Assembly: GCA_964639595.1 (NCBI GenBank) | Contig: CAZXEC010000001.1 | Location: forward strand, 187,750 to 251,749 | From: an uncultured Gammaproteobacteria bacterium | GTDB taxonomy: Bacteria > Patescibacteriota > Microgenomatia > CAZXEC01 | Direction of reading: 5' to 3' | Length of the DNA: 64,000 bases | Translations under genes and position numbers: made by a program | Part shown: one piece after another, positions 7,376 through 52,884 of the stretch | Numbering within the stretch: the stretch's first letter is position 1 | Layout of the letters: every line of letters begins with the position of its first letter | The notes under the pieces: generated by a model | Databases searched by the model: none | The model's input: the letters and a program-made list of their open reading frames with translations, nothing else | What the model was told of the DNA's origin: nothing

Positions 7376-10300
7376 ATGGCTACAAAAAATAAACCACACA
7401 GTAAAAAAGATAAAACTAAGTATCAATCCCGATTTAATCCCCGATTCAATCGGGGTAATCAAGATCAACAAGTAGCCTCTGCCAAAAAGACTGCTAGAAA
7501 AAAGAAGTACACCCAAGAGGAAGTCTGGGCACTTGGCAAAAATATTCCGCCGGTCCCGGCAGATTTGTCTGAACCTCAACTTTCTGAAACTGCATTCTAC
7601 ATAGCCAAAACACGATATGCTCTGCGTAATGATAAGAGTGAGCCGATAGAGTCGGCGCGTGAGATGTTTTGGCGGGTGGCATATAACATCGCTTGCGCAG
7701 ATCTTCTGTATCATGGCGACAGGAATAAAATGATTGAACAGGCCCAAAAGTTTTATAATTTAATGGCTTCTCAAAAATTTATTCCCAATACTCCCACCAT
7801 GCTCAACGCCGGCAAACCGATGCAGCAATTATCAGCTTGTTTCGTTTTGCCGATTGAAGATGATATGAAGTCAATCGCCAAAACCCTGGTTGATATGGTG
7901 ATGATTCACAAGTCTGGTGGCGGCACCGGCTTTTCTTTCTCCAGACTAAGGCCTTATGGTGATGTGATTAAGTCTTCCGGCGGCACCACCGTGGGTCCGA
8001 CTTCTTTTTTACAAGCTTACAATGATGTGACTTCCCAAATTAAACAAGGCGGAGTCAGGCGCGGTGCCAATATGGGCATTATGCACATCACCCATCCGGA
8101 TATTTTGAGATTTGCGGTGATGAAAGTTGATGAGTTTAATTTGACTAATTTTAATATTTCAGTAACTGTCACCGAAGAGTGGATGGATCAGGTTGGCAAG
8201 GATCAGCGGTTTGTTAATAGTGAGCCTGATTGGGAAGAAGTTATTGGAGAAATTAAATCTGCCCAGACTATTCGTGATGTTGATTTAAAACTTAAAAAGA
8301 CTGAAGACGGCGTCAGGAAATTATACGATTTGGTCAAAGCTACTCAACCGGATGAGGGTTACGATTTAATAAATCCCAGAAGCCAGCAGACAGTCGGCAA
8401 ACTGAATGCCTATAAAGTTTTCTTACTTATTACCCAACTGGCTTGGCATTATGGTGATCCGGGAATGATTATGATTGATAGGATCAATAAATCAGGTGCT
8501 AATCCCACTCCACATCTGGGACAGATTGAGGCTACTAACCCTTGTGTTACAGGTGACACTATAATTTCTACAGGAGAAGGGCTTATTCCCATGAAAGAAG
8601 TGGTGGAAAGCCATTTTGCCGGAGGAAAAAGATTCGGTGGTAATATGTCTTTGATCATTGATACCAGGACGCTTAATCATAAAACTGGCGGAACTTTACC
8701 AGGACGTGCTGTTAAGTTCTTTGATAATGGGATTAAGGAAGTTTGGAGACTGACTACTAAATCCGGTTTTACTTTGACAGCTACGCCAGATCATCAATTG
8801 CTCACACCAAAAGGTTGGGTGAAACTTCGAGATCTCAATACAGGAGACATAGTTTTGATCCAAAGCGGTAGAGGAGAATTCGGCAAAAACCGCCAGCTAC
8901 CGATTATCTCGAAGATTCCAACCATGCCTAATGACTGGAGCAAGGAATTGGGCATGGTTCTGGGATGGTTGATAGGAGATGGATGGGTAAGAACTGGAGA
9001 TAAAAACTGTCGAGTTGGTTTCACATTTGGTAAGGATGACCTAGATAGCCTCAATTATATACAGAATCTGATGAATAATTGGTATGGCAAAGACGTGAAG
9101 GCAGTAAAGAGAGAAAGAAATAATACCCATTTATCTTATCATAGTAGGGGGCTAGTAGATTTCTTTGTAAAACTAGGAGTAAAACCAGTTAAAGCTGCCG
9201 ACAAATTAGTTCCAGAGTCAATTTATACTGCGCCTGTTGAGGCAGTGGTAGGATTTTTACAAGGACTTTTTACTGCTGATGGTACGGTTAATTTCAAAAA
9301 AGGTCGTAATGCTTATGTAAGATTGACTTCTAAATCAAAATTATTACTGCAAGGCGTACAACTCTTGCTGCTTAATTTAGGCATATACTCCAAAATCTAT
9401 GACAGGAGTCGGGATTCAAGAATGGGGATGTTTCCTTACAAAAATAAGAGCGGTCAGCTGAAGACTTATACTCTGGATGGTGTTCTATTCGAGTTGTCGA
9501 TTTCAAAACAATCAGTAATGAAGTTTCTATCTGAAGTAGGTTTCCTTTCGGATCGCCACCAAGATAAGATTTCTAAATTTTCCACCCAAGATTTCTACGC
9601 TGATAAATTTGTAGATACTGTTTCCGAAATTAAACCATTTGGGAGGCAGCGAGTTTACGATTTAACCGAAGAGAAAAGTTTGACTTTTATTACTAACGGA
9701 ATAGTTAGCCTTGATTGTGGCGAGCAGCCGCTTCTGCCTTATGATGCCTGCACCTTGGGTTCAATTAACCTAGGGAAATTCGTCAAAGATGGTCAGATTG
9801 ATTACCAGGCCCTGGGTGAGGTTTCCCAAGAATGTGTGCACTTTTTAGATAACGTGCTTGATATGAATGCTTATCCTATTGCCGAAATTGCCGAAATGAC
9901 AAGAAAGGTAAGAAGAATTGGCTTGGGTGTAATGGGTTTGGCAGATCTTTTAGTCCAGGTGGAAATAGGATATAACACTGATGATGGTTTATCGTTGGCA
10001 GAAGATGTCATGGCCCATATTCAAGAATCTGCCAAAGAGGGCAGTATTAAATTGGCGCAAGTTCGCGGGGTATTCCCTGCCTGGAAAGGTTCAATTTTTG
10101 ATGATAAAAGTCCGCATTTCTTGGGGAAAAAGTTAATGATACGAAATGCGGCGGTTACTACTATTGCCCCAACTGGGACTATTGCCATGTTGGCTGATGC
10201 TTCGTCTGGAATTGAACCATATTTTGCCTTGTCTTATGCTAAAAATACTATTGAGGGCAAAAGACTATTTAATATCAACCCTTTCTTTTTGGAAATTGCC

Positions 10301-11299
10301 AAGAGGGAAGGTTTTTACTCGGAAGAATTATTGGAGAAAGTAGAACAAAACAGCGGATCAGTTGCTGGTTTGGCAGAAGTGCCGGAAAGATGGCAAAAAG
10401 TTTTTGTGGTTACCCGTGATATTACTCCGGAGTGGCATGTTAAAATGCAGGCCGCTTTCCAAAAACACGTTGACAATGCCATTTCCAAAACCATCAATTT
10501 TTCCAACAGCGCTACAGTGGAAGACGTCAGACACGCATACATGATGGTATATGAAACCGGTTGTAAGGGGATTACTATTTATCGCGATGGCTCGAGACAA
10601 AAACAGATCCTTGAGGTTAAAAAAGAAGGCTCCTATTATGACCAGTTGGCTGGTAAGCCAACTGGCGATGGAGTATCAAAAAACGGCCATGATAAAACCA
10701 TTGCTGTGGGGGACGATATGACCCCATACTTGCCCACTGCCAAGCCGCTTAAGGCTAAGGCTCCCGGAGAAGCTTGGGGAGTGAGATTGAAAAAGAAAAG
10801 CGATGTTGGCAATGTCTACACAGCAGTATACAGGGATGCTGACGGTAAACCGGTGGAGGTGTTTATTAATGTGGGTAAGTCCGGAGGATATGTGGCAGGG
10901 GCAGCAGAAGTGACCGGTAGGCTAGCTTCTCTGGCTTTAAAGCATGGAGCGGCCCTGGAAGAGGTAGCGGCGGAACTGGTGGGGATTGCCTGTGGAATTC
11001 CTTATGGTGTTGGCCCCAATGCTATTCTGTCAATGTTTGATGCTGCCGGTAAATCTGTTCTGGAGGCAGCTAAAACTAAACAGTTGCCATTGGCCATTGA
11101 TAATGGCGAATTTGAAGTTAGTCAACACGATGGTCATACCAAAGATAATCAACAAGAATCATTACTGCAAGCTCCAGAACAAGTCGGCATAGCGTACAAA
11201 ACTTTATTTGCTTCGTGCCCTGATTGCGGTTCTCAATTAGTGCTGGCTGAAGGTTGTCAAAAATGCTTAAATCCGGGATGCGGTTATAGTAAGTGCTAA
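7376..11299 (+). CDS. nrdJ: class II (adenosylcobalamin-dependent) ribonucleotide reductase NrdJ, containing a 391-aa intein and a C-terminal CxxC...CxxC tail
   Basis: The catalytic NP|CGEQPL motif is split by an intein. The C-terminus ends CPDCGSQLVLAEGCQKCLNPGCGYSKC. The N-terminal extension contains a palindromic-repeat insertion. Confidence 0.85.
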   Translation: MATKNKPHSKKDKTKYQSRFNPRFNRGNQDQQVASAKKTARKKKYTQEEVWALGKNIPPVPADLSEPQLSETAFYIAKTRYALRNDKSEPIESAREMFWRVAYNIACADLLYHGDRNKMIEQAQKFYNLMASQKFIPNTPTMLNAGKPMQQLSACFVLPIEDDMKSIAKTLVDMVMIHKSGGGTGFSFSRLRPYGDVIKSSGGTTVGPTSFLQAYNDVTSQIKQGGVRRGANMGIMHITHPDILRFAVMKVDEFNLTNFNISVTVTEEWMDQVGKDQRFVNSEPDWEEVIGEIKSAQTIRDVDLKLKKTEDGVRKLYDLVKATQPDEGYDLINPRSQQTVGKLNAYKVFLLITQLAWHYGDPGMIMIDRINKSGANPTPHLGQIEATNPCVTGDTIISTGEGLIPMKEVVESHFAGGKRFGGNMSLIIDTRTLNHKTGGTLPGRAVKFFDNGIKEVWRLTTKSGFTLTATPDHQLLTPKGWVKLRDLNTGDIVLIQSGRGEFGKNRQLPIISKIPTMPNDWSKELGMVLGWLIGDGWVRTGDKNCRVGFTFGKDDLDSLNYIQNLMNNWYGKDVKAVKRERNNTHLSYHSRGLVDFFVKLGVKPVKAADKLVPESIYTAPVEAVVGFLQGLFTADGTVNFKKGRNAYVRLTSKSKLLLQGVQLLLLNLGIYSKIYDRSRDSRMGMFPYKNKSGQLKTYTLDGVLFELSISKQSVMKFLSEVGFLSDRHQDKISKFSTQDFYADKFVDTVSEIKPFGRQRVYDLTEEKSLTFITNGIVSLDCGEQPLLPYDACTLGSINLGKFVKDGQIDYQALGEVSQECVHFLDNVLDMNAYPIAEIAEMTRKVRRIGLGVMGLADLLVQVEIGYNTDDGLSLAEDVMAHIQESAKEGSIKLAQVRGVFPAWKGSIFDDKSPHFLGKKLMIRNAAVTTIAPTGTIAMLADASSGIEPYFALSYAKNTIEGKRLFNINPFFLEIAKREGFYSEELLEKVEQNSGSVAGLAEVPERWQKVFVVTRDITPEWHVKMQAAFQKHVDNAISKTINFSNSATVEDVRHAYMMVYETGCKGITIYRDGSRQKQILEVKKEGSYYDQLAGKPTGDGVSKNGHDKTIAVGDDMTPYLPTAKPLKAKAPGEAWGVRLKKKSDVGNVYTAVYRDADGKPVEVFINVGKSGGYVAGAAEVTGRLASLALKHGAALEEVAAELVGIACGIPYGVGPNAILSMFDAAGKSVLEAAKTKQLPLAIDNGEFEVSQHDGHTKDNQQESLLQAPEQVGIAYKTLFASCPDCGSQLVLAEGCQKCLNPGCGYSKC
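7425..7460. repeat. palindromic element copy inside the nrdJ 5' coding region (TCCCGATTTAATC-CCCGATTCAATCGGGG-TAATC)
   Basis: Perfect palindrome CCCCGATTCAATCGGGG at 7437-7453 flanked by partial half-sites; translated as SRFNPRFNRGNQ. Confidence 0.7.
8543..9715 (+). mobile_element. intein with LAGLIDADG homing-endonuclease domain, inserted between P and C of the NrdJ NPCGE active-site motif
   Basis: Block A CVTGDTII, block B TATPDHQLLT, LAGLIDADG motifs LGWLIGDGWV and VVGFLQGLFTADGTV, block F/G VYDLTEEKSLTFITNGIVSLD followed by +1 Cys. The terminal residues are Leu-Asp rather than the canonical His-Asn. Confidence 0.8.
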
Positions 11300-11435
11300 G
11301 TTAATAATTACCAATACTACCAATTTCAAATGCCAAACGACCGATAATTTTGAATTGGTATTTACGTTTTTGTGAAACCAAAAGGCGAGCTTCGCTTAAT
11401 TGACATTGGGATTTATTGGTAGTATTAAGTAACTT

Positions 11436-12023
11436 GTGACTAAGTCTCGGCTTTACACCAGGACAGGCGATGGTGGTACTACTGGATTATTGGGTGGAAA
11501 AAGAATTGATAAAGATGATCAACTGCTTGAGGCTTATGGAACAATTGACGAGCTGTCATCTTGGATAGGACTTGCCAGATCTGTTGCCAAATTCAGGCAA
11601 TATAAGACAATTCTTCAGGATATCCAACATGATTTATTTATCATGGGAGCTGATCTGGCTAGTCTTTTTGCTAGAAAAAAAGCACGTCAACCCCGATTTA
11701 ATCGGGGTAATCGGGGTCAAAATATCCCCCAACTGACAGCAGATGATTGGCAGAAATTAGAGCGATTGATTGACACGTTTGATGAAAAATCGCCTCCTTT
11801 GAGATCGTTTATTCTACCCGGCGGGACAGAACTGGCGTCCAGATTACATATTTGTAGGACTATTACCAGGCGGGCAGAAAGACAACTGGTGAAATTGTCA
11901 AAAAAAACTAAAGTGCGAGCTGTTGATTTAATTTATCTGAACCGCCTGTCTGATCTATTTTTTGCTATGGCCAGGGCGGGCAATCGGCAAGCCAAAGTTG
12001 CAGACTTACTGGCAGCCAGATGA
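11436..12023 (+). CDS. PduO-type ATP:cob(I)alamin adenosyltransferase
   Basis: YTRTGDGGTT and ILPGG motifs; sits directly downstream of the B12-dependent nrdJ. A palindromic-repeat insertion encodes RQPRFNRGNRGQ. Confidence 0.75.
   Translation: MTKSRLYTRTGDGGTTGLLGGKRIDKDDQLLEAYGTIDELSSWIGLARSVAKFRQYKTILQDIQHDLFIMGADLASLFARKKARQPRFNRGNRGQNIPQLTADDWQKLERLIDTFDEKSPPLRSFILPGGTELASRLHICRTITRRAERQLVKLSKKTKVRAVDLIYLNRLSDLFFAMARAGNRQAKVADLLAAR
11691..11716. repeat. palindromic element copy inside the pduO-type gene (CCCCGATTTAATCGGGG-TAATCGGGG)
   Basis: Perfect 17-bp palindrome 11691-11707 plus an extra half-site; translated as QPRFNRGNRGQ. Confidence 0.7.
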
Positions 12024-33819: not shown

Positions 33820-36594
33820 TTGTCAACCACGCTGTTTCTAGGTAGTATTCCTGGCTCGTTTTATGAAGCTAATTTTGATACAATGGATGTGATTATGCTA
33901 GGAATTTTATCAAAGTTTTTAAATACCAATCAAAGGGAGCTAGATAACATTTGGCCAATTGTTGCCAAGATTGGCCAGCAGGAGGAGTCCATCTCGCAGT
34001 TATCAGACAGACAGCTTTCTGACAAAACCACTGACTTCAAAAAGAAATTACAGGATGGCCAAAGCCTAGAGAGTATTTTGCCAGAAGCTTTTGCTTGCGT
34101 CAGAGAAGCTTCCAAGCGCACCACCGGCATGAGACATTATGACGTGCAGCTTCTGGCAGGTGCGGCACTTTTTCGGGGAAAAATTGCTGAACAAAAAACC
34201 GGCGAAGGTAAAACTTTATCAGCCACCACCGCTCTATATCTGCGGGCACTTGTCGGCCAGGGCGCTCACCTGGTTACTGTCAATGATTATCTGGCCAAAC
34301 GCGACGCCGAGTGGATGGGTCCAATTTTCCATGCGTTGGGAATGTCTGTGGGGGTGATTAATCACGAACAGTCTTATTTATATGACCCCAATCCTCAAAC
34401 TAAGGAAGTAGAGACTGCGGAAGTTCACTTGTCTGAAGAAGAAGCTCTATCCCCGGAAACTGGCGGTTTGGGGACAGGCAAATATTTAAGGGAAGTCACA
34501 AGAAAAGAAGCATATCAGGCAGATATTACCTATGGAACCAATAATGAATTTGGCTTTGATTACCTGCGGGATAATATGGTCAGAGCACTTTCTGATATGG
34601 CCCAACGCGGACACTACTTTGCCATTGTGGACGAGGTAGACTCGGTTTTAATTGACGAAGCCAGAACGCCTTTGATTATTTCTGCTCCCGATACAGAACC
34701 AACAGATAAATATTATGAATTTTCCAAAATTGTCAGCCGACTCAACCCTCAAGCTGATTATGTGGTTGATGAAAAGTTGAAGTCAGTCCATTTAACCGAT
34801 GGGGGCATTGTCAAAATTGAACAATGGCTGCAAGTTGATAACCTATATGAGAAAGATTTTGACACTCTCCACCATATTGAGCAAGCCTTAAAAGCCAGGA
34901 CCCTTTTCCAAAAAGATAGAGATTATATTGTCCGTGACGGGGCAGTTGTCATAGTGGATGAATTTACCGGCAGGCTGATGTTTGGCCGGAGATTTTCTGA
35001 AGGGTTGCATCAGGCCATAGAAGCCAGAGAAGGTGTCAAAATACAACAGGAGTCAAAAACATTGGCTACTATTTCTTTCCAAAATTATTTCCGGATGTAT
35101 CAATATTTAGGAGGTATGACTGGAACTGCTGCCACTGCTGCAGAAGAATTCCATAAAATTTATAAATTAGATGTGCTTGTAGTGCCGACTAACAAAACCA
35201 TGATCAGACAAGATCTGTCAGATGCTATTTATAAAACTGCCAAAATTAAGTTTCAAGCAGTAGCTGCTGAAATTGAAAAAAGGCACCAAGCCGGCCAGCC
35301 GGTGTTAATTGGCACCACTTCCATTGATAAAAATGAGCTGGTATCCCAGCTTTTGACCAGAAAAAGGATCAAACACCAAATCCTCAATGCTAAAAACCAC
35401 CAGAAAGAAGCCCAAATTATCTCTCAAGCCGGACAAAAAGGAGCAGTAACCGTGGCCACCAATATTGCCGGGCGAGGAGTCGACATTAAATTGGGAGATG
35501 GCGTAGTTTCTCTAGGGGGCCTACATATTATTGGCACAGAAAGACATGAGGCCAGAAGAATTGATGACCAACTAAGAGGCAGGGCCGGACGACAAGGTGA
35601 CCCCGGTTCTTCACAATTTTTTGTGTCCTTGGAAGATGACATTATGAGGCTATTCGGAGGATCACAAGTGGCGGGACTGATGACCGCTTTGAAAATTCCT
35701 GATGATATGCCTATTTCCCATGGCATGATTTCTCGGGCCATTGAGAGCGCCCAAAATCGCGTGGAAGGCCACAATTTTGATATTAGAAAACATGTAGTTG
35801 AGTATGATGATGTGATCAACAAACAAAGGCAAATAGTTTACGGCCAAAGAAAAAAGATCATCGAGCAAAGTGAAACTCAAGAAGACTATCTGCGCCAGAT
35901 AGTTTTGGGAAAATTAAGACAAGAGATATCTGGCATGGCAATTTTATACGGACAAGAGGGTTACACTCCGGCAGAAGTTGCCGAGTTAATCAGAGAATTT
36001 TGTGAAATTATCCCTTTTGATCAGGCTTCACGTGACCAAATTACCAGCCAGATTGGCACCGGTAAATCAAGCGAGGAAGTATCGCAGTTATTATGGTCTG
36101 TTGTAGAGCATGTTTACAACCAACGTCTTGATGAGTTGGGCAATCAAGTGATGATAGAGGTGGAAAAGTTTGTACTTTTGGAAGTGGTTGACCGTTTGTG
36201 GATTGAGCACCTGGATGCTGTAGATGATTTGCGGGAGGGGATTGGCTTAAGAGGTTATGCGCAAAGAGACCCCTTGGTGGAATACAAAGCCGAAGCTTTT
36301 GGTATGTTTGAGAAACTGATGAAAAATATCGACTATGAAGTAGCCAGAAGAATTTTTAAAGTGCAGGTAGCTGGGAGACAAACTACTCACAACTCACCGC
36401 TTACAGCAAACAGCAGATTACAGCCTATTGAAAATAGCAGTGCTCAGATAGCAGATCAGCAAGCAGTCAGCCCCGATCAATCCCGATCAAATCGGGATCA
36501 AATCGGGGTCAGCCATAAGCAAAAATTAGGCCGTAATGATCTGTGCTGGTGCGGTAGCGGGAAAAAGTATAAAAGATGTCACTATCCTAATTAG
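33820..36594 (+). CDS. secA: preprotein translocase ATPase SecA, with C-terminal zinc-binding CWCGSGKKYKRCH
   Basis: DEAD motor motifs, preprotein cross-linking domain, C-terminal zinc finger. A palindromic-repeat insertion encodes SPDQSRSNRDQIGVS in the C-terminal linker. Confidence 0.95.
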   Translation: MSTTLFLGSIPGSFYEANFDTMDVIMLGILSKFLNTNQRELDNIWPIVAKIGQQEESISQLSDRQLSDKTTDFKKKLQDGQSLESILPEAFACVREASKRTTGMRHYDVQLLAGAALFRGKIAEQKTGEGKTLSATTALYLRALVGQGAHLVTVNDYLAKRDAEWMGPIFHALGMSVGVINHEQSYLYDPNPQTKEVETAEVHLSEEEALSPETGGLGTGKYLREVTRKEAYQADITYGTNNEFGFDYLRDNMVRALSDMAQRGHYFAIVDEVDSVLIDEARTPLIISAPDTEPTDKYYEFSKIVSRLNPQADYVVDEKLKSVHLTDGGIVKIEQWLQVDNLYEKDFDTLHHIEQALKARTLFQKDRDYIVRDGAVVIVDEFTGRLMFGRRFSEGLHQAIEAREGVKIQQESKTLATISFQNYFRMYQYLGGMTGTAATAAEEFHKIYKLDVLVVPTNKTMIRQDLSDAIYKTAKIKFQAVAAEIEKRHQAGQPVLIGTTSIDKNELVSQLLTRKRIKHQILNAKNHQKEAQIISQAGQKGAVTVATNIAGRGVDIKLGDGVVSLGGLHIIGTERHEARRIDDQLRGRAGRQGDPGSSQFFVSLEDDIMRLFGGSQVAGLMTALKIPDDMPISHGMISRAIESAQNRVEGHNFDIRKHVVEYDDVINKQRQIVYGQRKKIIEQSETQEDYLRQIVLGKLRQEISGMAILYGQEGYTPAEVAELIREFCEIIPFDQASRDQITSQIGTGKSSEEVSQLLWSVVEHVYNQRLDELGNQVMIEVEKFVLLEVVDRLWIEHLDAVDDLREGIGLRGYAQRDPLVEYKAEAFGMFEKLMKNIDYEVARRIFKVQVAGRQTTHNSPLTANSRLQPIENSSAQIADQQAVSPDQSRSNRDQIGVSHKQKLGRNDLCWCGSGKKYKRCHYPN
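36471..36510. repeat. palindromic element copy (nested variant) inside the secA 3' coding region
   Basis: CCCCGATCAA-TCCCGATCAAATCGGGA-TCAAATCGGGG, with nested dyad symmetry. Confidence 0.65.
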
Positions 36595-39367: not shown

Positions 39368-39408
39368 ACCCCGATCCGATAATATCAGATCCCGATTCAA
39401 TCGGTGGG
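39368..39408. repeat. degenerate copy of the CCCCGAT...ATCGGGG palindromic element family (intergenic)
   Basis: CCCCGATCCGATAATATCAGATCCCGATTCAATCGGTGGGG. Confidence 0.5.
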
Positions 39409-39474
39409 GCTTTATCGTTAAAATCATATCACATTGATTGGACTTGACCAAGCTGTTAAGATGTTTAGTAATTA

Positions 39475-43941: not shown

Positions 43942-44883
43942 ATGATGGACGCAGAGCAACCAGAGGAAGTCTCCAGAGTAAATCTCCAAGAAACCACAAG
44001 GGGGAGGGTGGACGTAGAACCTGTTGTTGTGGGGCATAGACGAAGAGGGGCACGAGAAGAAAATTTAGGACTTCTGGTACGCGGACTTCGTAAGAAAGGT
44101 CATTTAACGCAGGTTGAGTTTGCTGAGAAAGTTGCCGCTATGTTAGGAAAGCCAGTGGAACAGCCGCTTATTGCTCGCCTGGAAGCAGGAATTCACCGTC
44201 CCAAACTAGAAGAAATTAGAGCTATTCTAGATGTTGCTCGGATAGACCCAATCGAAGAAAGTAGGGTTTTATACACAGCCGGCTATCTTCCAACTAAAGA
44301 GGATTTGGAGAAAAACAAAAGCTCCTTTGATGTACTATTGAAAGACTGGTCAGAGAGAGGATTGCCCTGCGCAGTTATAGACGCGATGGGATGGAGATAT
44401 GTAGCTTGGAATGAAGAGGCGGATAAGCTGTTTCATCTAAGTCAAGCCCAAAAAAGGAAGGAGCAAAAAGGCATAACCGGAAATGAAGAGGACGAACTGT
44501 ACGGTTATCCCCAACTTCTAGAGTTGATTTTAGATCCATCATCAGACTTTCATAAACTGGTCTTTAGTGCAGGGAAAGAGGCAGGGATGAATTTCGCTGC
44601 ACAGCAGCTGAATAACTTTTTTTATCAAACCGAACCATGGCGCCGTCTGCCTTGGTTGAATCGGATGAAAGAAGATATCCGCAAGACTCCTTATTATTCA
44701 GAAATTGCATTGCTGCGAAGGCAACACCTGCTTACTTCTGTGTGGATTTCCTACGGCTTTACCGAGATACCAATAATCCACGAAAGCGAGAAGAGAATTC
44801 TTGCAGAGTTTTCCACTGAACTAAATACCGATTTTCGTTTTGAAACTTTGAGATACCTCTTTTTCCTCCCAAGAGGCCAGTGA
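43942..44883 (+). CDS. XRE-family HTH regulator with a large C-terminal domain of unknown function
   Basis: HTH segment LTQVEFAEKVAAMLGKPVEQPLIARLEAG; local GC is higher than the surroundings. Confidence 0.5.
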   Translation: MMDAEQPEEVSRVNLQETTRGRVDVEPVVVGHRRRGAREENLGLLVRGLRKKGHLTQVEFAEKVAAMLGKPVEQPLIARLEAGIHRPKLEEIRAILDVARIDPIEESRVLYTAGYLPTKEDLEKNKSSFDVLLKDWSERGLPCAVIDAMGWRYVAWNEEADKLFHLSQAQKRKEQKGITGNEEDELYGYPQLLELILDPSSDFHKLVFSAGKEAGMNFAAQQLNNFFYQTEPWRRLPWLNRMKEDIRKTPYYSEIALLRRQHLLTSVWISYGFTEIPIIHESEKRILAEFSTELNTDFRFETLRYLFFLPRGQ

Positions 44884-45059
44884 ATTTCTCTAAGGTTTAC
44901 CCCAGTTCGGCACTTTCTCTAGAAACAACTATAAATAATAACGATACCGAATCAGCCCGAAAAAGTTCAGATTCGTTTAGATCTATTACATGTATTCTTC
45001 TCATGGCACCTCCTTCCCAACGCACATTTTAGAAGAATGTGTTCTACATGTGTTTACAC

Positions 45060-45087
45060 AATCCGTAGCCTTGCAAGGCTACGGATT
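45060..45087. repeat. perfect 28-bp palindrome AATCCGTAGCCTTGCAAGGCTACGGATT (candidate operator / hairpin)
   Basis: Perfect dyad symmetry read directly from the sequence; intergenic, between the XRE regulator and the ftsEX operon. Confidence 0.6.
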
Positions 45088-45320
45088 GATGTTTGCCTTG
45101 TCAGGTGATTTCACCTCGTGCTAGAATAATGATGTGCAAGAGACTGTCCCATCAATGCCGACAACATTTTCGCTACCTCCTGCTCCCATGGTATATTCTC
45201 CTGAAGAGCATGGAAGTTTTTTTAGTGTCATTTTTCTCGTAACTGTTTTTTTAGTTGGTCTTATTTCAGGCTATATACTGGCGCAAGCAAACTGGCAAAC
45301 ACCGCCTTTGATAATCAGTA

Positions 45321-46028
45321 GTGAATCTCAAACAGAAAAATAATATGCTGAAGTTTGATAAAGTCACAAAACATTTTGGTACCGGTTATGAGGCATTAAC
45401 TGATGTTGATTTAGAGATCGAACCATCAGAGTTTGTTTTTATAATTGGGCCTTCGGGAGCTGGTAAAACTACCTTATTAAAACTGATCACCAAGGAGCTG
45501 ACTCCCAGCAGCGGATCAATTTATTTTGGCGATTGGGATCTGGTTAATTTGCCTTCCTCATACATACCCCAACTAAGACGTAGAGTGGCTACGGTTTTCC
45601 AAGATTTCCGTCTCTTGACAGACCGGACGGTTAGAGAAAATGTGGCTTTGACACTTGAGGTGTTAGGTCAAAAAGTGGAAGATATACAGGAGGATGTCAA
45701 TCAAATACTGGAGATGGTGGGACTGGCTGGTAAGGGTGAAACTTTCCCCAGTCAATTGTCAGGAGGAGAAGCTCAAAAAGTGGTCATTGCCAGAGCGCTG
45801 GTTGCTAAACCGGAAGTGATTTTAGCAGATGAACCGACAGGTAATCTTGATCTTGGCACAGCCAGGTCGATTATGAAGTTGCTAGAAGATATCAATAAAG
45901 CAGGTACCACGATCATGATGGCTACTCATAATGCCGATCTTGTTAATGAAATGGAAAAGCGGGTGATACGCCTAGATAAAGGTAGAGTAACTTCAGATCG
46001 CAAAAAAGGAAAATACAAAGATGATTGA
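45321..46028 (+). CDS. ftsE: cell-division ABC ATPase FtsE
   Basis: Walker A GPSGAGKTT, signature LSGGEAQ, Walker B ILADEPTGNLD; overlaps ftsX. Confidence 0.9.
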   Translation: MNLKQKNNMLKFDKVTKHFGTGYEALTDVDLEIEPSEFVFIIGPSGAGKTTLLKLITKELTPSSGSIYFGDWDLVNLPSSYIPQLRRRVATVFQDFRLLTDRTVRENVALTLEVLGQKVEDIQEDVNQILEMVGLAGKGETFPSQLSGGEAQKVVIARALVAKPEVILADEPTGNLDLGTARSIMKLLEDINKAGTTIMMATHNADLVNEMEKRVIRLDKGRVTSDRKKGKYKDD

Positions 46029-48083: not shown

Positions 48084-49172
48084 TTGTTAGTGTATCGCAT
48101 GAGAGCTCCTGTCATTTTACTGGTGATATTGTTTTTTGGTTGTACTGTCAAGGTGGCGTGGGCTGCTGCTTCTTTGGATGTGGTATTAAGTGAGGTTATG
48201 TGGATGGGCACTACTGCCTCTGCTGCTGATGAGTGGATAGAACTTTATAATAATACTAACTCGGATGTTGATATAACTGGTTGGGGTATTTATGAGGCTG
48301 GTGGTAGTACTCTGGTGGAAGACTTGAGCGGCATGATTGGCGCCAAGTCTTATTATTTAATTGAAAGAACTGATGATAATACAATAAGTAATGTTACAGC
48401 TTCTCAACCACCGACCAGTTGGGGTGGAAGCGGTCTTAATAATTCTGGCGAGCATCTGGTTTTAAAAGATCAGAATGGAATTATTGTAGATGAAGTTAAT
48501 GCCTTAACTGGTTGGTTTGCTGGCAGCAATAGCAGTACCAGTGAAAGAGCCAGTATGGAGAGGATTAATTTTAACGCTGCTGGTAGCGATGCTGGTAACT
48601 GGGCCACCAACAACAAACAAACAGCCAATGCTAGAGATGCTGCTGGTAATGTTATCTGGGGAACCCCGAAAGCAGCCAACAGTCAAACCAACCAGCCAAC
48701 CTCCACTCCACCTACAGACACTCCTACTCCCACGCCAACCCCGATTCAATCGGGGCCAACACCTACGCCAACTCCAACCCTGACCCCCACGCCAACACCC
48801 CAGACAACTGCCACGCCCAAACCAACTACTACTCCTAAGGCTACTGCCACTCCCACCCCAATACCCAAGGCCACCATCTCATCTACAGCAACTCCTAACC
48901 CTACTCAAATTTTGGCTGCCCAAGCCACCAATCCTGCCAAAAAAGCAACTGCTACACTTACTGCAGGAAAAGAAGCCAGCATCTCTTATGAAATCATTGA
49001 TATGGCAACGTCAGAGGCTCACAGCACTTCCTCGTCATCAACTGCTCAAACAGGTCAAGATACCAATCAAACCATTGGGGGGATATTGCTGATGGCGGGC
49101 GCTCTGCTGTCTGTTGCATCAGTGGGCTTTCATCTGTTTCAAAAGAGGAAAATTCCTCCACTTACCCCATGA
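48084..49172 (+). CDS. lamin-tail-domain (LTD) surface protein with Thr/Pro linker and C-terminal TM anchor
   Basis: LSEVMWMG...DEWIELYN...ITGWGI LTD motifs, TPTPTP linker carrying a palindromic-repeat insertion (PIQSGP), C-terminal hydrophobic anchor. Confidence 0.6.
   Translation: MLVYRMRAPVILLVILFFGCTVKVAWAAASLDVVLSEVMWMGTTASAADEWIELYNNTNSDVDITGWGIYEAGGSTLVEDLSGMIGAKSYYLIERTDDNTISNVTASQPPTSWGGSGLNNSGEHLVLKDQNGIIVDEVNALTGWFAGSNSSTSERASMERINFNAAGSDAGNWATNNKQTANARDAAGNVIWGTPKAANSQTNQPTSTPPTDTPTPTPTPIQSGPTPTPTPTLTPTPTPQTTATPKPTTTPKATATPTPIPKATISSTATPNPTQILAAQATNPAKKATATLTAGKEASISYEIIDMATSEAHSTSSSSTAQTGQDTNQTIGGILLMAGALLSVASVGFHLFQKRKIPPLTP
48739..48755. repeat. palindromic element copy inside the Thr/Pro linker of the LTD protein
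   Basis: CCCCGATTCAATCGGGG, a perfect palindrome; translated as PIQSG. Confidence 0.7.
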
Positions 49173-49197
49173 GTAGATTCTTTGGTAAAATATTATC

Positions 49198-49572
49198 ATG
49201 CAAAAGATTAATCGGTGGTGGCCGGTTTTTTTATGGGCGGGCTTAATTTTTGTTGGATCATCTCTGCCGGTTGTTAAAACCAGTACTAGCTATTGGGAAG
49301 ATTTTATCTTAAAAAAACTGGTACACTTACTGGAGTATGCAGCGCTTTATTTATTCTTATATAGGGCTACTTACCGAAATTGGCAGCAGGCTTTGGCGAT
49401 ATCCATAGTCTATGCTATAACAGATGAGATTCATCAAAGTTTTACGCCCGGCAGAGAGCCAGCTATCCGCGATGTTATTATTGACAGCACAGGCGCTTCT
49501 GTGGCGGGGATAATTTTATGGAAGTATCAACCAATTCTGCCCAAAAAACTCAAGAATTGGCTTTTAAAATAG
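49198..49572 (+). CDS. VanZ-family membrane protein
   Basis: Four TM helices with ITDEIHQSFTPGREPAIRDVIIDSTG. Confidence 0.6.
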   Translation: MQKINRWWPVFLWAGLIFVGSSLPVVKTSTSYWEDFILKKLVHLLEYAALYLFLYRATYRNWQQALAISIVYAITDEIHQSFTPGREPAIRDVIIDSTGASVAGIILWKYQPILPKKLKNWLLK

Positions 49573-49952
49573 CCGGAGACCTTAAAGTGGGCGATATAAT
49601 TGCCTTGCAGGGTGATCTGGGCAGTGGCAAAACCACTTTTGTCCAAGGATTGGCTCGCGCCCTCGGGGTTACCAGAAGAGTAACTTCCCCCACTTTTGTA
49701 TTTGTTAAATCCTATCCTGCTCAAATTAACCAACAGCCTACGGTCTTGTACCATATCGATTTATACAGGTCGCAGTCCGCGCATGATGTTGCCAGTTTAG
49801 GCCTGGAAGACATCGTAGCTGATCCCAACGTTGTTATTTGTGTTGAATGGCCGGAAAAAGCCCCTGAACTTTTCCAGAGAGCTACCATCAAGATTAGTTT
49901 CTATAATATCAGTGATAACATAAGAAGAATAGTAGTTGATAGAAATATATGA
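49518..49952 (+). CDS. tsaE: tRNA t6A biosynthesis ATPase TsaE
   Basis: P-loop GDLGSGKTT and the SPTF motif. Confidence 0.8.
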   Translation: MEVSTNSAQKTQELAFKIAGDLKVGDIIALQGDLGSGKTTFVQGLARALGVTRRVTSPTFVFVKSYPAQINQQPTVLYHIDLYRSQSAHDVASLGLEDIVADPNVVICVEWPEKAPELFQRATIKISFYNISDNIRRIVVDRNI

Positions 49953-50533
49953 ATAATTGGGGCAAGGCAAGAGGTTTAGTTAAAAATGGCGGAGTAATAG
50001 TATTCCCGACCGATACGGTTTGGGGGATAGGTTGTCTTTTTGATAATGAGCAAGCGGTGGAGAGAATTTTTACCATCAAAAAAAGACCCAAAGATCTGCC
50101 GCTGCAGGTTTTGATTGCCGACAAGCAGCAACTTGATTTATTGGTTGATCAACTGCCGGATCATATCAGGCAAATGATGGAAAAATTTTGGCCGGGGGCA
50201 TTGACTATTATCATGGATGCCAAAGACGGTTTAGACTTGCCTTTAGTCATTGTAGATCGTAGTATTGGTATCAGGCTTCCCAACCACCAGGACTTGAGAA
50301 ATTTTATCAATGACTTAGGCAAACCATTGGCCGCCACCTCTGCCAACTTTCATGGTGAGATAGCTCCGGTTGCCAAAGCTGATTTGTCAACAGATTTTAT
50401 CAGACAGGTGGATTTGGTATTGGATGGCAAGACAGGTTTTGGAGTAGAATCAACTGTAGTTGATGCCAGAACGCGCCAGTTGAAAATAATCAGACAAGGA
50501 GCGGTTCATTTAGGGGAAAGCGTCAAGGGGTAA
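49949..50533 (+). CDS. tsaC: L-threonylcarbamoyladenylate synthase (TsaC/YrdC family)
   Basis: VFPTDTVWGIGC and ATSANFHGE motifs. Confidence 0.8.
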   Translation: MNNWGKARGLVKNGGVIVFPTDTVWGIGCLFDNEQAVERIFTIKKRPKDLPLQVLIADKQQLDLLVDQLPDHIRQMMEKFWPGALTIIMDAKDGLDLPLVIVDRSIGIRLPNHQDLRNFINDLGKPLAATSANFHGEIAPVAKADLSTDFIRQVDLVLDGKTGFGVESTVVDARTRQLKIIRQGAVHLGESVKG

Positions 50534-50542
50534 GGGGAAAGA

Positions 50543-50866
50543 ATGATATTGAAGATTGACACCACAGACAGGCAGAAAATTCAAGTTGAGCTGACAGATG
50601 CCAAATCAGGTAAAATTGATAGTATAGAAAAACACAATCAAGTCGGCTCGCAGGTGCTGCTTGTCGCCATAGAAGAGTTGTTATCAAAAAATGGCGTGTT
50701 ATTATCTGATTTAAAAGAAGTTCAGGTCAATCGAGGGCCAGGTTCTTACACCGGCACCCGCGTTGGGGTAGCTGTGGCCAATGCCCTATCGTGGGGACTG
50801 GGATTAAAAAAAGTAAGCGAGCTGGAGATGCCAATTTATGAGCCAGATAAGTATGGGCAAAAATAA
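50543..50866 (+). CDS. tsaB: TsaB-like protein, N-terminal ASKHA half only (107 aa)
   Basis: GPGSYTGTRVGVAVANAL motif; about half the usual TsaB length. Confidence 0.55.
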   Translation: MILKIDTTDRQKIQVELTDAKSGKIDSIEKHNQVGSQVLLVAIEELLSKNGVLLSDLKEVQVNRGPGSYTGTRVGVAVANALSWGLGLKKVSELEMPIYEPDKYGQK

Positions 50867-50958
50867 ACTACCAATTTCCAATTGTTACCAATAAATACCA
50901 ATTAACAAAGCAGTCTAATTAGACATTTGATATTTGACATTGGTAATTATTCAATCTT

Positions 50959-51879
50959 ATGAAAGTTTTAGTCACCGGCGGAGCCGGATTCATCGGTTCG
51001 CATGTTTGCCGGGTCCTTCTTGAGAAAGGACACCGGGTGAGTGTGGTAGATAATTTATCCCATGGGCAAAAAACAGCCATCCCGCAAGGAGTTGATTTTT
51101 TCCAGGTTGATGTTGCCAACAAGGAGGAAATGACCAGAGTTCTTACTGGCCATGAAGCAGTAATTCATATGGCTTCTTTGATTGAAGTGGGAGAATCAGT
51201 CAAAAAACCGCAAGAATTTGCTCAAAATAACATTGTGGGGACTGTGGCTTTGCTGGAAGCGATGGAAAAGTCTAATGTTAAAAAAATTATTTTTTCTTCC
51301 AGTGCTTGCGTATACGGCCGGCCCCACCAGTTGCCGATCACCGAAGATGATCCATTGGGGGAACAGGAAAATCCTTATGGTGCCACTAAAGTCTGCATGG
51401 AACAGTTTTGCGCCCTGTACCACCGGCTATTTGGGTTTGATGTGGTGATTCTGCGGTATTTTAATCCCTATGGGCCGGGTGAGGAGCATCAGCCGGAAAC
51501 TCATGCCATTCCTAACTTTATCAAAGCAGCCCTCAACAAACAGCCCTTGCCGGTTTTTTGGCAAGGAGAACAGGTGAGGGATTTTATTTATATAGAAGAC
51601 TTAGCCCGAGCGCATGTGGCGCCCTTGGAGTGTTTGGGCCTACATTATTATAATATTGGTACAGAAACCGGGGTAAAAGTTAAAGATGTCATTAGCGCCA
51701 TTTCTGATATTTTGGGGTATCGGTTGGAAATAGCGGATAAGGGCAACAGATCAGGGGATGTGCCGGAACTGGTGGCCTCATCTGCCAAAATAAAAAAAGA
51801 ACTGGGCTGGAGCGCCCAAGTTGACTTAAAAGAAGGTCTGCGCCGCACCATTGAGTACTATAAAAAATTATCTGTTTAG
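50959..51879 (+). CDS. galE: UDP-glucose 4-epimerase / NAD-dependent sugar epimerase
   Basis: VLVTGGAGFIGSH Rossmann motif and the YGATK catalytic YxxxK. Confidence 0.7.
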   Translation: MKVLVTGGAGFIGSHVCRVLLEKGHRVSVVDNLSHGQKTAIPQGVDFFQVDVANKEEMTRVLTGHEAVIHMASLIEVGESVKKPQEFAQNNIVGTVALLEAMEKSNVKKIIFSSSACVYGRPHQLPITEDDPLGEQENPYGATKVCMEQFCALYHRLFGFDVVILRYFNPYGPGEEHQPETHAIPNFIKAALNKQPLPVFWQGEQVRDFIYIEDLARAHVAPLECLGLHYYNIGTETGVKVKDVISAISDILGYRLEIADKGNRSGDVPELVASSAKIKKELGWSAQVDLKEGLRRTIEYYKKLSV

Positions 51880-52060
51880 TCCTTCAGTATTTTGATTTTT
51901 TGGTTCGTCTGATTTGATCTTTAAGCCCTCTTTCTGTTATTATTGGCCGCAATAATGGGAATGTTTGCGGCAACAGCTGCCGCAGGATGGTTTTCCATTA
52001 GCTCTTTAACAAATTTAGTTGTGAAGTCGCGTAAGACGGGATGAAAAAAGGAGGCTTGAG

Positions 52061-52555
52061 GTGAACAGAGCAGTAAGCTGGATGCCGGCAATTTGGATTC
52101 CAGGAGTTTGGGCGGCGCTCTATTATTGGTTTATTGTAGGTAACTCACAGAGCCATCCGCTTCTCCTTTGGGGAGTGGGGGCTTTGATCGTCTGGCAAAT
52201 TACGTTTTTTATAACAGACTGCCCCGGACCAATTCCTCCCAAGGGACGTGATTACATACCACCTTATCCCTATTTTGTGGCAATAATGGGGGTTATCATA
52301 CTTTTTCTGGGTATGATAGCGGGCTGGTTGGCCACCACTCCTGGTTTGACCAGAGTCATTGCCGCTGTCCTGATCGGGCTGGAAAACCTGCTGGTTTACC
52401 ATAGCGTTTCTCATAGCAGCTGGGACGATCCATATTATGGAAGTTCCCTTGTTCCTCGGTTAGTCAAATGGTCCTTTGTTCCAATAGGATTGCTGGGGCT
52501 AGCCGGTTTGACGGAATTGATCGGCCACATCACCAAGCTAGCAGAATGCCTGTAA
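52061..52555 (+). CDS. integral membrane protein (hypothetical)
   Basis: 164 aa with 4-5 hydrophobic helices. Confidence 0.4.
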   Translation: MNRAVSWMPAIWIPGVWAALYYWFIVGNSQSHPLLLWGVGALIVWQITFFITDCPGPIPPKGRDYIPPYPYFVAIMGVIILFLGMIAGWLATTPGLTRVIAAVLIGLENLLVYHSVSHSSWDDPYYGSSLVPRLVKWSFVPIGLLGLAGLTELIGHITKLAECL

Positions 52556-52566
52556 AGGAGGGGGAA

Positions 52567-52761
52567 ATGTCATCAATTTGGATGTTGACTGTTGCTCTTT
52601 TGGCGAGCACCGGAGGAGTCTTCGCAACCATGGGTCTTGCAACGCAAGAGAACTCCTTTATAGCCACTGGAGCAGGACTGCTCTTAATGTCCATGATAGG
52701 ATCATTCATCGGTCTGCTGGGAGCATTAGTTACAATATGCAGCAGATCGAGGACCAGTTAA
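52567..52761 (+). CDS. small membrane protein (2 TM); start reassigned to the internal ATG preceded by AAGGAGGGGG
   Basis: Strong Shine-Dalgarno 6 nt upstream of the ATG at 52567; 64 aa with two hydrophobic helices. The ORF-track start at 52468 lacks an RBS. Confidence 0.45.
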   Translation: MSSIWMLTVALLASTGGVFATMGLATQENSFIATGAGLLLMSMIGSFIGLLGALVTICSRSRTS

Positions 52762-52850
52762 TCTCACAACTAAATATCGTACGAATACCCGCCTTCATTC
52801 TGCTAAAAAACAGAATTAAGGCGGGTTATACTTTCATCCCCGTTACCCCT

Positions 52851-52884
52851 ATTTAATCCCCGATTTAATCGGGGCAATCGGGGT
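52851..52884. repeat. palindromic element copy: TATTTAATC-CCCGATTTAATCGGGG-CAATCGGGG (intergenic)
   Basis: Perfect 17-bp palindrome plus an extra half-site. Confidence 0.7.

Follow-up and report, generated by a model that had tools for sequence, protein, structure and literature searches.

MITEs measure 50-500 bp and are derived from identifiable IS with the same ends, and Rickettsia palindromic elements (RPEs), of ~100-150 bp, are to our knowledge confined to Rickettsia and have not been reported with a fixed 4-bp duplication. Short GC-rich palindromes inserted in AT-rich genomes, sometimes in-frame, are also known from fungal mitochondria as mobile GC clusters and double-hairpin elements, flanked by short direct repeats; we know of no enzyme for either. 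In the Nostocaceae, the hairpin-forming dispersed repeats SDR4-6, of 21-27 nt, reportedly occur inside genes and other repeats and are said to show evidence of mobility, and we know of no enzyme or nuclease cassette connected with SDRs. RPEs have been described as selfish palindromic repeats (Ogata et al., 2000, as cited in PMC3184786), and SDR5 as a short mobile element, with SDR-like repeats found in Nostocaceae only (PMC5861425). REP/REPIN sequences are short GC-rich hairpins dispersed in the genome and tied to a nuclease gene of their own that is present in single copy; REPs lie outside genes, are tagged with GTAG or CGTC, show no duplication and are associated with an HUH tyrosine enzyme, RAYT (PMC3116915; PMC3733652).

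The 17-bp palindrome CCCCGATTNAATCGGGG, found in groundwater DNA of Candidatus Daviesbacteria (Patescibacteria), is very probably a very small non-autonomous mobile DNA element, which behaves like RPEs, MITEs and cyanobacterial SDRs but belongs to none of them. The earlier note had compared its behaviour with that of RPEs, and the likeness holds for a selfish palindrome inserted in-frame into coding genes (here four ORFs in the window, that is, the whole 64-kb stretch of DNA analysed, and 39 of 124 metagenome copies), with blocks of ~21 bp between filled and empty sites backing insertion. Kinship does not follow, since the element measures 17 bp against 100-150 bp, lives in a different phylum and keeps the frame by adding 17 + 4 = 21 bp. 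Like MITEs it is non-coding, has terminal inverted repeats (perfect 8-bp arms, CCCCGATT and AATCGGGG) and a target-site duplication of fixed length (18/129 exact copies; filled and empty pairs), occurs in many dispersed copies and is presumably mobilised in trans; however, two 8-bp arms and one base fall well short of the MITE size range, and neither the window nor 1.87 Mb of flanking DNA yielded a parent IS sharing its ends. SDRs are likewise very short dispersed hairpin repeats lying inside genes and other repeats, but differ in phylum and sequence, and the fungal mitochondrial elements differ in being organellar, ~30-50 bp or more in length and of other sequences. The pairing of a hairpin with a nuclease gene recalls REP/REPIN, the associated gene here being a small GIY-YIG gene, whereas the true 4-bp duplication, the variable flanks in place of a tag and the location of a third of the copies in ORFs (31% in long open frames; 4/6 in the window) do not. 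Among neighbouring ORFs of at least 150 aa, no RAYT (HUH/Y1) gene was found near copies. The literature searches brought up no mobile element of such small size with this signature.

Exact matches to the palindrome occur four times in the window, at 7439-7455 (N = C), 11691-11707 (T), 48739-48755 (C) and 52858-52874 (T), and not once in 100 dinucleotide-preserving shuffles of it. Allowing up to 3 mismatches adds 36481-36497 and 39390-39406, giving six copies against 0.16 expected, and the half-site AATCGGGG occurs 12 times against 1.56 expected; no other family of short hairpins recurs in the window. The dispersed family reported earlier is thus real, and its six loci are all present, although only four copies are perfect, those in SecA and at 39.4 kb being variant or degenerate, and the boundaries of the composites had been placed slightly off. 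The same sequence was recovered from independent assemblies (one NCBI MAG and three Logan run assemblies) and is therefore not an artefact of read joining or assembly. The copies, with extents that include flanking repeats, and their host genes are as follows.

7376..11299, plus strand: host gene for a class II ribonucleotide reductase (NrdJ-like, 1307 aa) with a LAGLIDADG intein (Pfam, alignment)
7423..7468, plus strand: composite copy in the NrdJ N-terminal extension, codons 18-31, SRFNPRFNRGNQDQ (sequence, translation, exact match)
7427-7438 and 7460-7464, plus strand: decayed outer 17-mer of the NrdJ composite, with TCAA flanks at 7423-7426 and 7465-7468
7439-7455, plus strand: inner exact 17-mer of the NrdJ composite, in the outer copy's TAAT, duplicated at 7435-7438 and 7456-7459
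11436..12023, plus strand: host gene for a PduO-type cob(I)alamin adenosyltransferase (Pfam, homologs)
11687..11720, plus strand: copy in the PduO-type adenosyltransferase, within a variable loop, peptide QPRFNRGNRG
Order within the PduO copy, plus strand: TCAA 11687-11690, 17-mer 11691-11707, extra 9-bp TAATCGGGG 11708-11716, TCAA 11717-11720
33820..36594, plus strand: host gene for SecA (Pfam)
36467..36512, plus strand: nested pair in the SecA C-terminal linker (sequence, match with up to 3 mismatches, hairpin scan)
36471-36480 and 36502-36508, plus strand: SecA outer copy CCCCGATCAAATCGGGG, with TCAG flanks at 36467-36470 and 36509-36512
36481-36497, plus strand: SecA inner copy TCCCGATCAAATCGGGA, at the outer copy's TCAA, duplicated at 36477-36480 and 36498-36501
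39369..39409, plus strand: degenerate pile of two or more decayed copies in the intergenic DNA that separates the GHMP kinase and NAGPA genes
Contents of the 39.4-kb pile, plus strand: TCCCGATTCAATCGGTG at 39390-39406, and a fragment, CCGATAATATCAG, resembling the ATT/AAT-loop variant
48084..49172, plus strand: host gene for a secreted or membrane LTD-domain protein with a Pro/Thr linker (Pfam, translation)
48735..48759, plus strand: simple copy in the LTD protein, within its Pro/Thr linker, with CCAA 48735-48738, 17-mer 48739-48755, CCAA 48756-48759
52846..52883, plus strand: intergenic nested pair upstream of a CAP-domain gene, outer copy CCCCtATTTAAT...CGGGG
52858-52874, plus strand: inner exact 17-mer of the CAP-upstream pair, at the outer TAAT 52854-52857, duplicated as cAAT 52875-52878

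Four copies are read through in intact ORFs (NrdJ, PduO, SecA and the LTD protein), as had been claimed, and all sit in linkers or termini: in NrdJ the site is an N-terminal extension, in PduO a variable loop, in SecA the hypervariable tail and in the LTD protein a Pro/Thr linker. For PduO and the LTD protein, the label of essential gene is an assumption. Net insertions amount to 42 bp in NrdJ, 30 bp in PduO, 42 bp in SecA and 21 bp in the LTD protein, where PIQSGPT is added to a TPTPTP repeat and the copy is among those with an exact 4-bp duplication. For NrdJ, we take the N-terminal extension to be translated on the strength of the annotated start codon. The extra half-sites of the earlier note are present, but most are nested insertions, and the PduO case is a 9-bp tandem repeat. 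For the NrdJ composite, a nested-insertion model is supported by an orthologous pair, L108 and L118, in which one copy is nested in an older one with a TTGA duplication. Folded as DNA, the SecA pair gives a two-tier hairpin (-14.6 kcal/mol, z = -6.7); no close SecA ortholog was retrieved for a filled/empty comparison. The CAP-upstream pair agrees with the nested model at 36 of 38 positions, with no recognisable outer duplication around it, and the 39.4-kb pile folds no better than shuffles, which is consistent with decay. The inserted PduO peptide, flagged earlier for a check against orthologs, is present in two homologs at 84-85% identity, and the whole insertion is absent from those at 55% or less; in the relatives L125 and L126 the 17-mer has 1-2 point changes and the 9-bp unit is missing, and the insertion is lineage-specific and decaying in relatives.

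A sign of mobility lies at the edges of the palindrome. Of the 129 exact copies that the window and the genome collection provide, 18 are abutted by an exact 4-bp direct repeat, against 0.5 expected and 0-2 in shifted controls, and a 5-bp repeat was seen only once; nine of 14 secondary copies of the metagenome loci show the same 4-bp duplication. Left and right flanks covary, with CCAA, TCAG, TTAG, TAAA, TGAA, CAAA, CCCG and TAAT all represented. Only 14% of the exact 17-mers in the genome collection have a duplication, and many others resemble terminators, chance matches or another repeat family. In four orthologous comparisons of filled and empty sites the extra block measures exactly 21 bp in two and ~21-22 bp in two. 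L126 reads GATGA TCAA CCCCGATTAAATCGGAG TCAA CAAG where the window and L125 read GAT[AG]A TCAA CA[AG]G; the empty target is TCAA 11149-11152 of the NrdJ gene, which the alignment shows filled in L126. Besides the L108/L118 pair, L232 against L224 and L166 against L221 gave blocks of ~21-22 bp. Since 17 + 4 = 21 bp, every insertion keeps the reading frame. The earlier note was right that the in-frame insertions are tolerated in linkers and termini, but it had missed the 4-bp target duplication, and it is this rather than selection that keeps the frame.

The 25-mer TCAA-17mer-TCAA was found in at least 120 metagenome contigs, at no fewer than ~102 distinct sites, where by our own calculation ~0 would occur by chance, and the family is abundant in Patescibacteria (CPR) metagenomes. 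Long open frames hold 39 of 124 metagenome copies (31%) against 81% of random positions; the element is depleted from coding DNA, and the four of six copies reported in genes, a count that is true of the window, are atypically many. Coding copies use all six frames and encode peptides such as QPRFNRGQ, TPIKSGS and DPDLIGVD. The central base does track the reading frame, as first noticed, but by survivorship: all four bases occur among the 124 metagenome copies, and stop-making ones are absent from the coding copies. Solo copies decay without compensation, and one 25-bp variant with a larger loop was observed.

In the 17-bp unit a 7-bp stem (CCCCGAT/ATCGGGG) carries a variable loop of 3 nt, and we propose that the unit is mobilised in trans. 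It would enter at a staggered break, and the filling-in of the 4-nt overhangs would leave the insert flanked by a 4-bp target-site duplication. YCAR is the favoured target, chiefly TCAA, often in the context G-TCAA-C, and the net gain is always 21 bp (7 codons). Copies surviving in genes would be stop-free ones that landed in linkers, loops or termini, most others having been purged. Insertion into the loop of older copies (at TAAT, TCAA or TTGA) produces nested composites, and solo copies then decay through point mutation. Against the element reading counts that a 17-bp duplex is shorter than any two-ended transposase substrate known to us. No mobilising gene was found within the 64-kb window, and no protein family of at least 150 aa was enriched near solo copies.

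A stand-alone GIY-YIG nuclease of ~83 aa is, tentatively, the leading candidate for the mobilising enzyme. Its gene lies in mini-cassettes at tRNA genes, with the hairpin and its duplication in the D-loop of an upstream tRNA 5' fragment, and the protein matches Pfam PF01541 (E = 5e-15), its closest solved relatives being UPF0213 proteins and the structure-specific nuclease SLX1. Loci picked by GIY-YIG homology alone have the hairpin at tRNA nt 12-15 in 7/7 cases, and with the 22 cassettes among palindrome-selected loci included it holds this position in 29/29; the duplication of nt 12-15 reads TCAA, TCAG or TAAA, following the local tRNA. Tandem arrays of cassettes, together with tRNA 5' segments present in duplicate, point to homing-like events that recurred; the arrays and the duplication fixed at nt 12-15 hint indirectly that the enzyme may cut target sites free of the element. 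Counting against the link, solo sites have G before TCAA and tRNA sites C, and the gene adjoins the element in the related cassette loci but not in the window, where tblastn found no class-A GIY-YIG gene. Moreover, as far as we know, characterised GIY-YIG homing enzymes leave 2-nt 3' overhangs, and such cuts would give no 4-bp duplication. Phage T4 SegB likewise leaves 2-nt 3' ends, according to its description (PMC2330249). As described there, SegB is also a free-standing GIY-YIG gene in tRNA gene DNA and has a DNA-binding domain, whereas the CPR protein consists of an 83-aa catalytic domain alone and was accompanied by the 17-bp hairpin in all cassettes examined (PMC2330249 for SegB).

A conventional DDE transposase encoded elsewhere in the genome could instead move the 17-mer as an extreme MITE, the tRNA fragment being a neutral landing pad that bears TCAA; we consider this rather unlikely. 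IS5-, IS701- and IS1380-like families make 4-bp duplications, and such a duplication with a YNAR-type target is typical of IS5-like enzymes and fits the present sites, as do the perfect 8-bp inverted arms and the fact that solo sites share no more than TCAA with the tRNA context. Neither the window nor the neighbouring genes yielded a transposase of this kind, however, IS elements are scarce in Patescibacteria, and neutral landing would hardly give the same hairpin position in 7/7 (29/29) cassettes, even at TCAG or TAAA. The copies might also be excision footprints of a larger cut-and-paste transposon, with 8 nt of each terminal inverted repeat and a filler base left between a 4-bp duplication. 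Such footprints would account for the order duplication-8 nt-N-8 nt-duplication and for all four central bases, but seem improbable given the exact 8+1+8 structure of every copy, the copies nested in copies and those in SecA and ribonucleotide reductase, where an insert of full length would be expected to kill a haploid cell with a reduced genome; besides, in 1.87 Mb of flanking DNA no half-site pair bounded a longer segment with matching flanks.

Movement of a single-strand hairpin by an HUH enzyme (IS200/IS605 TnpA or RAYT-like), with the tetranucleotide as recognition or cleavage site as in REP/REPIN, would suit a short hairpin beside a preferred TCAA, dominant in the flanks, and the L126 empty site taken alone fits insertion 3' of TCAA with a TCAA borne by the element. 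Covariation of left and right flanks over many tetranucleotides indicates a true duplication instead, the conserved GTAG or CGTC tag is absent, one third of copies lie inside ORFs and no HUH gene family appeared among neighbours (ORFs of at least 150 aa screened), so that we regard this reading as very doubtful. Least probable is a selected functional motif (a protein-binding site, DNA-uptake sequence or RNA hairpin) that arose by mutation in place or is ancestral coding sequence. The stem is conserved, CPR bacteria are thought to be naturally competent, and a compensatory stem variant in one GIY-YIG cassette (CCCCGAC...GTCGGGG) suggests that the hairpin is functional in the cassettes. Orthologous sites nevertheless differ by ~21-bp blocks with the target duplicated, genes are poor in copies, homologs lack the inserted peptides and solo copies decay without compensation; for solo copies a functional motif is contradicted. 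For a mobile palindrome of this size, insertion inside genes can be harmless, as its 21 bases add seven codons.

The palindromic family described in the earlier note was recovered in the window, whose source is a groundwater Candidatus Daviesbacteria MAG (Microgenomates/Patescibacteria). The exact 17-bp palindrome CCCCGATTNAATCGGGG occurs four times (at 7439, 11691, 48739, and 52858) and in none of 100 dinucleotide-preserving shuffles, while allowing up to three mismatches adds two further copies (36481 and 39390), giving six in the window vs 0.16 expected. In addition, the half-site AATCGGGG, corresponding to one arm, is found 12 times in the window against an expectation of 1.56, and a scan of all perfect short hairpins in the window returned the 17-mer as the sole recurrent family. 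Read-through of the element in four ORFs, also claimed previously, was confirmed for the following genes:

7376-11299, NrdJ, a class II ribonucleotide reductase with a LAGLIDADG intein; reads through a composite element flanked by TCAA...TCAA
11436-12023, PduO-type adenosyltransferase; reads through a copy flanked by TCAA...TCAA
33820-36594, SecA; reads through a composite element flanked by TCAG...TCAG
48084-49172, LTD protein with a Pro/Thr linker; reads through a copy flanked by CCAA...CCAA

Because an NCBI assembly and three independent Logan run assemblies carry the identical PduO gene with its element, the assembly artefact considered in the earlier note can be ruled out. Three other features of the window are recorded here. 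The NrdJ intein (8588-9706; Pfam Intein_splicing, LAGLIDADG_3, and LAGLIDADG_2, the latter two a homing-endonuclease domain) is a second selfish insertion in that gene, unrelated to the 17-mer. A perfect 30-bp palindrome, CAATCCGTAGCCTTGCAAGGCTACGGATTG (45059-45088), is located in the intergenic spacer that separates an HTH-domain gene (43942-44883) from ftsE (45321-46028); it has no relation to the family and could be an operator or terminator. Besides, a lone half-site CCCCGATT at 61668-61675, within the ORF at 61311-62501, stands without a second arm; it probably matches by chance or is what is left of a copy that has decayed completely.

The element inserts with a 4-bp target-site duplication. 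Of the 129 exact 17-mers obtained in total from the window and the species-representative genome collection, 18 are directly abutted by an exact 4-bp repeat, vs 0.5 expected and 0-2 when the comparison is shifted by 1-4 bases, and the duplication is exactly 4 bp, since a 5-bp flanking repeat was seen only once in this set. The duplication was also present in 9 of 14 secondary copies at metagenome loci. The preferred target is YCAR, foremost TCAA, with a G preceding TCAA in 55% and a C following it in 35% of solo sites (those outside the GIY-YIG cassettes described below). Microhomology-templated repair using a donor with TCAA flanks was rejected as a general mechanism, given that 11 of the 18 duplications in this unbiased set are not TCAA. 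The central base, read in the TCAA orientation among the metagenome matches listed, is T in 45 cases, A in 44, C in 17, and G in 15, and is thus independent of flank orientation.

Comparison of filled and empty orthologous sites confirmed the insertion event. Two close relatives of the window, L125 and L126, share about 85% protein identity with it and were compared base by base at one site in the part of the NrdJ gene that codes for the C-terminus: L126 has GATGA-TCAA-CCCCGATTAAATCGGAG-TCAA-CAAG, whereas the sites in the window (GATAA-TCAA-CAAG) and L125 (GATGA-TCAA-CAGG) are empty, which is a precise 21-bp insertion with TCAA duplicated. Three additional orthologous pairs were found among the collected loci. 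The additional block measures approximately 21-22 bp in L232 (filled, TTGA duplication) compared with L224 and in L166 compared with L221 (TCAA duplication), and exactly 21 bp in L108, where a new 17-mer plus TTGA interrupts an older copy in its loop; L118 has that older copy without the interruption, and the pair directly demonstrates nesting. The comparison of PduO orthologs likewise showed a peptide restricted to close lineages, as the insertion is missing in every homolog of 55% identity or less and present in all three close lineages; the copy carries 1-2 uncompensated point changes in the relatives and has gained an additional 9-bp TAATCGGGG in the window. By this distribution, the PduO insertion is older. 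A C-terminal search for an empty SecA site did not reveal one, the tail being hypervariable and the matches only fragments of 50% identity or less. In the collected locus L227, two tandem copies have one TCAA in common, an arrangement noted alongside L199 (approximately 480-540).

Each event adds seven codons, since 17 + 4 = 21, and frame preservation is therefore intrinsic to the element and not a product of selection. Among the metagenome matches listed, 39 of 124 copies (31%) lie in open frames of at least 120 codons, vs 81% of random 25-nt windows from the same loci, so the family is depleted from genes, which is consistent with purifying selection. In-frame copies are tolerated in linkers, and coding copies use all six reading frames (QPR[FL]NRGQ, TPI[KQ]SGS, and DPD[LS]IGVD). 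The earlier observation that the central base tracks the reading frame was correct, as coding copies are without stop-making central bases, but its reading as a selection pattern gives way to survivorship, considering that non-coding copies carry all four bases.

The extra half-sites noted previously are indeed present, and those of the composites are reproduced if a new copy inserts into the loop of one already present, the 9-bp unit in PduO standing apart. The composite at 52846-52883 (CCCCtATT[TAAT] + 17-mer + [cAAT]CGGGG) fits the nested model at 36 of 38 positions; in that of NrdJ, the outer copy is decayed and the exact inner one sits at the outer TAAT, and in that of SecA, the inner TCCCGATCAAATCGGGA sits at the TCAA of an outer CCCCGA[TCAA]ATCGGGG. 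The folding proposed in the earlier note was borne out for DNA by the simple unit (-8.3 kcal/mol, z = -4.7) and by the SecA composite, a two-tier hairpin (-14.6 kcal/mol, z = -6.7), while shuffled sequences fold at least as well as the decayed pile at 39.4 kb. A 25-bp variant, CCCCGAT-AGCAACGACTA-ATCGGGG, with the same stem and an 11-nt loop, adjoins a normal copy at two loci (L165 4238-4290 and L198 910-960), with TCAA flanks in common, and the element is therefore able to carry a little internal sequence.

The 17-bp element is widely spread in Patescibacteria. With 16 specified bases, about 139 chance occurrences were computed for the 596-Gb genome collection, and many 17-mer matches there resemble terminators or chance, while some belong to another repeat family. 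The duplication-bearing copies lie on low-GC contigs (GC 0.34-0.48) labelled Microgenomates, Daviesbacteria, Saccharimonadales, or "Patescibacteria group", or binned under the nominal label "uncultured Gammaproteobacteria". The 25-mer TCAA-17mer-TCAA, for which the computed chance expectation is approximately zero, was found in at least 120 metagenome contigs, including Hainich-labelled groundwater assemblies, with about 102 distinct insertion sites among the matches listed.

Other contexts of the motif were also observed. In L002, L007, L029, and L110 (reversed in L006, L020, and L146), the core lies inside a longer repeat, (CT)GGATT-CCCCGATTNAATCGGGG-AATGACA, without the 4-bp duplication, on contigs labelled Nitrospiraceae, Thermodesulfovibrionales, delta-proteobacterium, Nitrospinota, and Methylomirabilis; this appears to be a different family with the same core. 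The Saccharibacteria MAG CAZHWT has 17-mer copies on at least five contigs, one of them, in L117, adjoining a (TAATCGC)n tandem repeat, and contains a 175-bp repeat starting with the 17-mer that is 89% identical between two contigs (L088 3094-3268 and L117 7556-7729). Viral contigs held 22 exact 17-mers, mostly terminator-like. Three copies are on the viral-classed IMGVR_UViG_3300025015_000021 (93.9 kb; L132, L147, and L148), one of them with TTGA duplicated exactly; this contig has genes for an integrase, a replication initiator, a helicase, and an HNH endonuclease and shares its sample with the GIY-YIG cassette locus L272. The element may also colonise mobile elements of Patescibacteria.

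A Pfam search of the 41 ORFs in the window returned no transposase. Of the 120 loci, no more than 6 had a protein family of at least 150 aa in common near the copies; type IV pilin-like proteins, a serine recombinase, and housekeeping genes were among the largest groups of this size. An autonomous element was sought as two half-sites separated by 25-8000 bp and bordered by the same 4 bp, and 1.87 Mb of collected DNA held no such pair apart from two artefacts of adjacent or nested solo copies.

Among the TCAA-flanked matches listed, there are 22 in which the copy is placed within the D-loop of a 5' tRNA fragment (nt 1 to approximately 24-30) that forms the leader of a gene for a GIY-YIG nuclease of about 83 aa (Pfam PF01541, E = 5e-15). 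Directly after the gene comes an intact tRNA (Lys, His, or Arg) that starts with the same sequence as the fragment. Mini-cassettes of this kind, from Microgenomates/Patescibacteria, were found at the following loci:

L168 3290-3652, tRNA fragment, hairpin, GIY-YIG gene, and tRNA
L181, L182, L165, L178, L197, L247, L162, L227, and L269-L285, the same arrangement

As a control for ascertainment bias, seven homologous GIY-YIG genes were picked on protein similarity alone and their loci then fetched, and the hairpin was at the same tRNA position in all seven. The cassette duplication is the local tRNA's own nt 12-15 (TCAA, TCAG, or TAAA), and the hairpins keep the 7-bp stem with a variable 3-nt loop (TTA, TAA, CAG, or ATT), one cassette having the compensatory stem variant CCCCGACTGAGTCGGGG. 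Fragment, hairpin, and GIY-YIG gene form tandem arrays of approximately 300-bp units in L182, L162, and L279, and across the loci examined the intact tRNA copy never carried an insert. Interpretation of the tRNA-like sites as interrupted tRNA genes was rejected, because ARAGORN predicted no tRNA even with the insert removed; they are 5' fragments. The protein is a bare catalytic domain, nearest to UPF0213 proteins, followed by the structure-specific nuclease SLX1 and I-TevI, and this class was not found in IMG/VR. More distant small GIY-YIG genes (L084 4800-4890, L213 ~11200-11310, L219 ~5340-5450, L221 ~1440-1550, and L034 1-46) are without the 17-mer and have other GC-rich hairpins upstream (e.g., CCGCCAGCTGGCGG and GCCTCGCCAAAGGCGGGC), often by tRNA ends; the pairing of a hairpin with a small GIY-YIG gene may be a general design that involves several families of hairpins.

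The hairpin inserts with a 4-bp duplication, its copies nest in older copies, and solo copies decay; we infer insertion at a 4-nt 5'-staggered break and mobilisation in trans. We tentatively propose the GIY-YIG nuclease as the mobilising enzyme, with tRNA nt 12-15 as its home site and solo copies arising from off-target TCAA-like sites. That hairpin and 83-aa nuclease constitute a previously unrecognised two-part mobile system of Patescibacteria is possible, though doubtful. Such a nuclease would be at home in the D-arm of tRNA genes, cut there (at nt 12-15) and at TCAA-like sites throughout the genome with a 4-nt stagger, and move the hairpin in one of two forms, with its own cassette, as the cis-acting end of that cassette, or alone, as a "micro-MITE". 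Characterised GIY-YIG homing enzymes, however, leave 2-nt 3' ends, a cut geometry that counts against this assignment, as does the context of solo sites, which is unlike that of the tRNA. SegB is likewise described as leaving 2-nt 3' ends (PMC2330249).

A DDE transposase encoded elsewhere is a serious rival, although we consider it unlikely. The element resembles MITEs in its inverted arms and duplication and is rated micro-MITE-like, but it differs in size, and no parent IS was found in the window or in the 1.87 Mb of collected DNA. Explanations by excision footprints, HUH enzymes, or a functional motif are weak. For the GIY-YIG proposal, the hairpin and nuclease partnership is analogous to that of REP-RAYT, with a different nuclease fold, whereas the extragenic location, sequence tag, and absence of duplication of REPs are not shared by the 17-mer. 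Cyanobacterial SDRs are similarly very small mobile hairpins; one account (PMC5861425) describes SDR-like repeats as found only in Nostocaceae. The likeness to Rickettsia palindromic elements suggested earlier stands for in-frame selfish behaviour, but the 17-mer is not itself such an element, given the difference in size and phylum. No published description of the element was found, searches for repeats in Patescibacteria and for the motif giving nothing relevant, nor was the cassette arrangement described in the literature searched; a 2026 study of Patescibacteria tRNA introns mentions no GIY-YIG, palindromes, or cassette.

There is a realistic chance that the element is part of a categorically new GIY-YIG/hairpin mobile system. 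That it is so closely paired with a tiny GIY-YIG nuclease at tRNA genes suggests a partnership of hairpin and nuclease, and the candidate is directly testable in vitro because the protein has 83 aa and the DNA substrate 17 bp. If true, the two-part system would be the first bacterial DNA transposition driven by GIY-YIG and would include the smallest known element that generates a target duplication and writes 7-residue insertions into proteins; confirmation would set the lower size bound of duplication-generating mobile DNA at 17 bp. The sum of 17 + 4 offers a simple reason why a selfish element is able to colonise the essential genes of a minimal genome without frameshifts. The element would also supply proteins of the CPR (Patescibacteria) with 7-residue linker insertions by its very design, causing length variation that would confound ortholog alignment and gene annotation.
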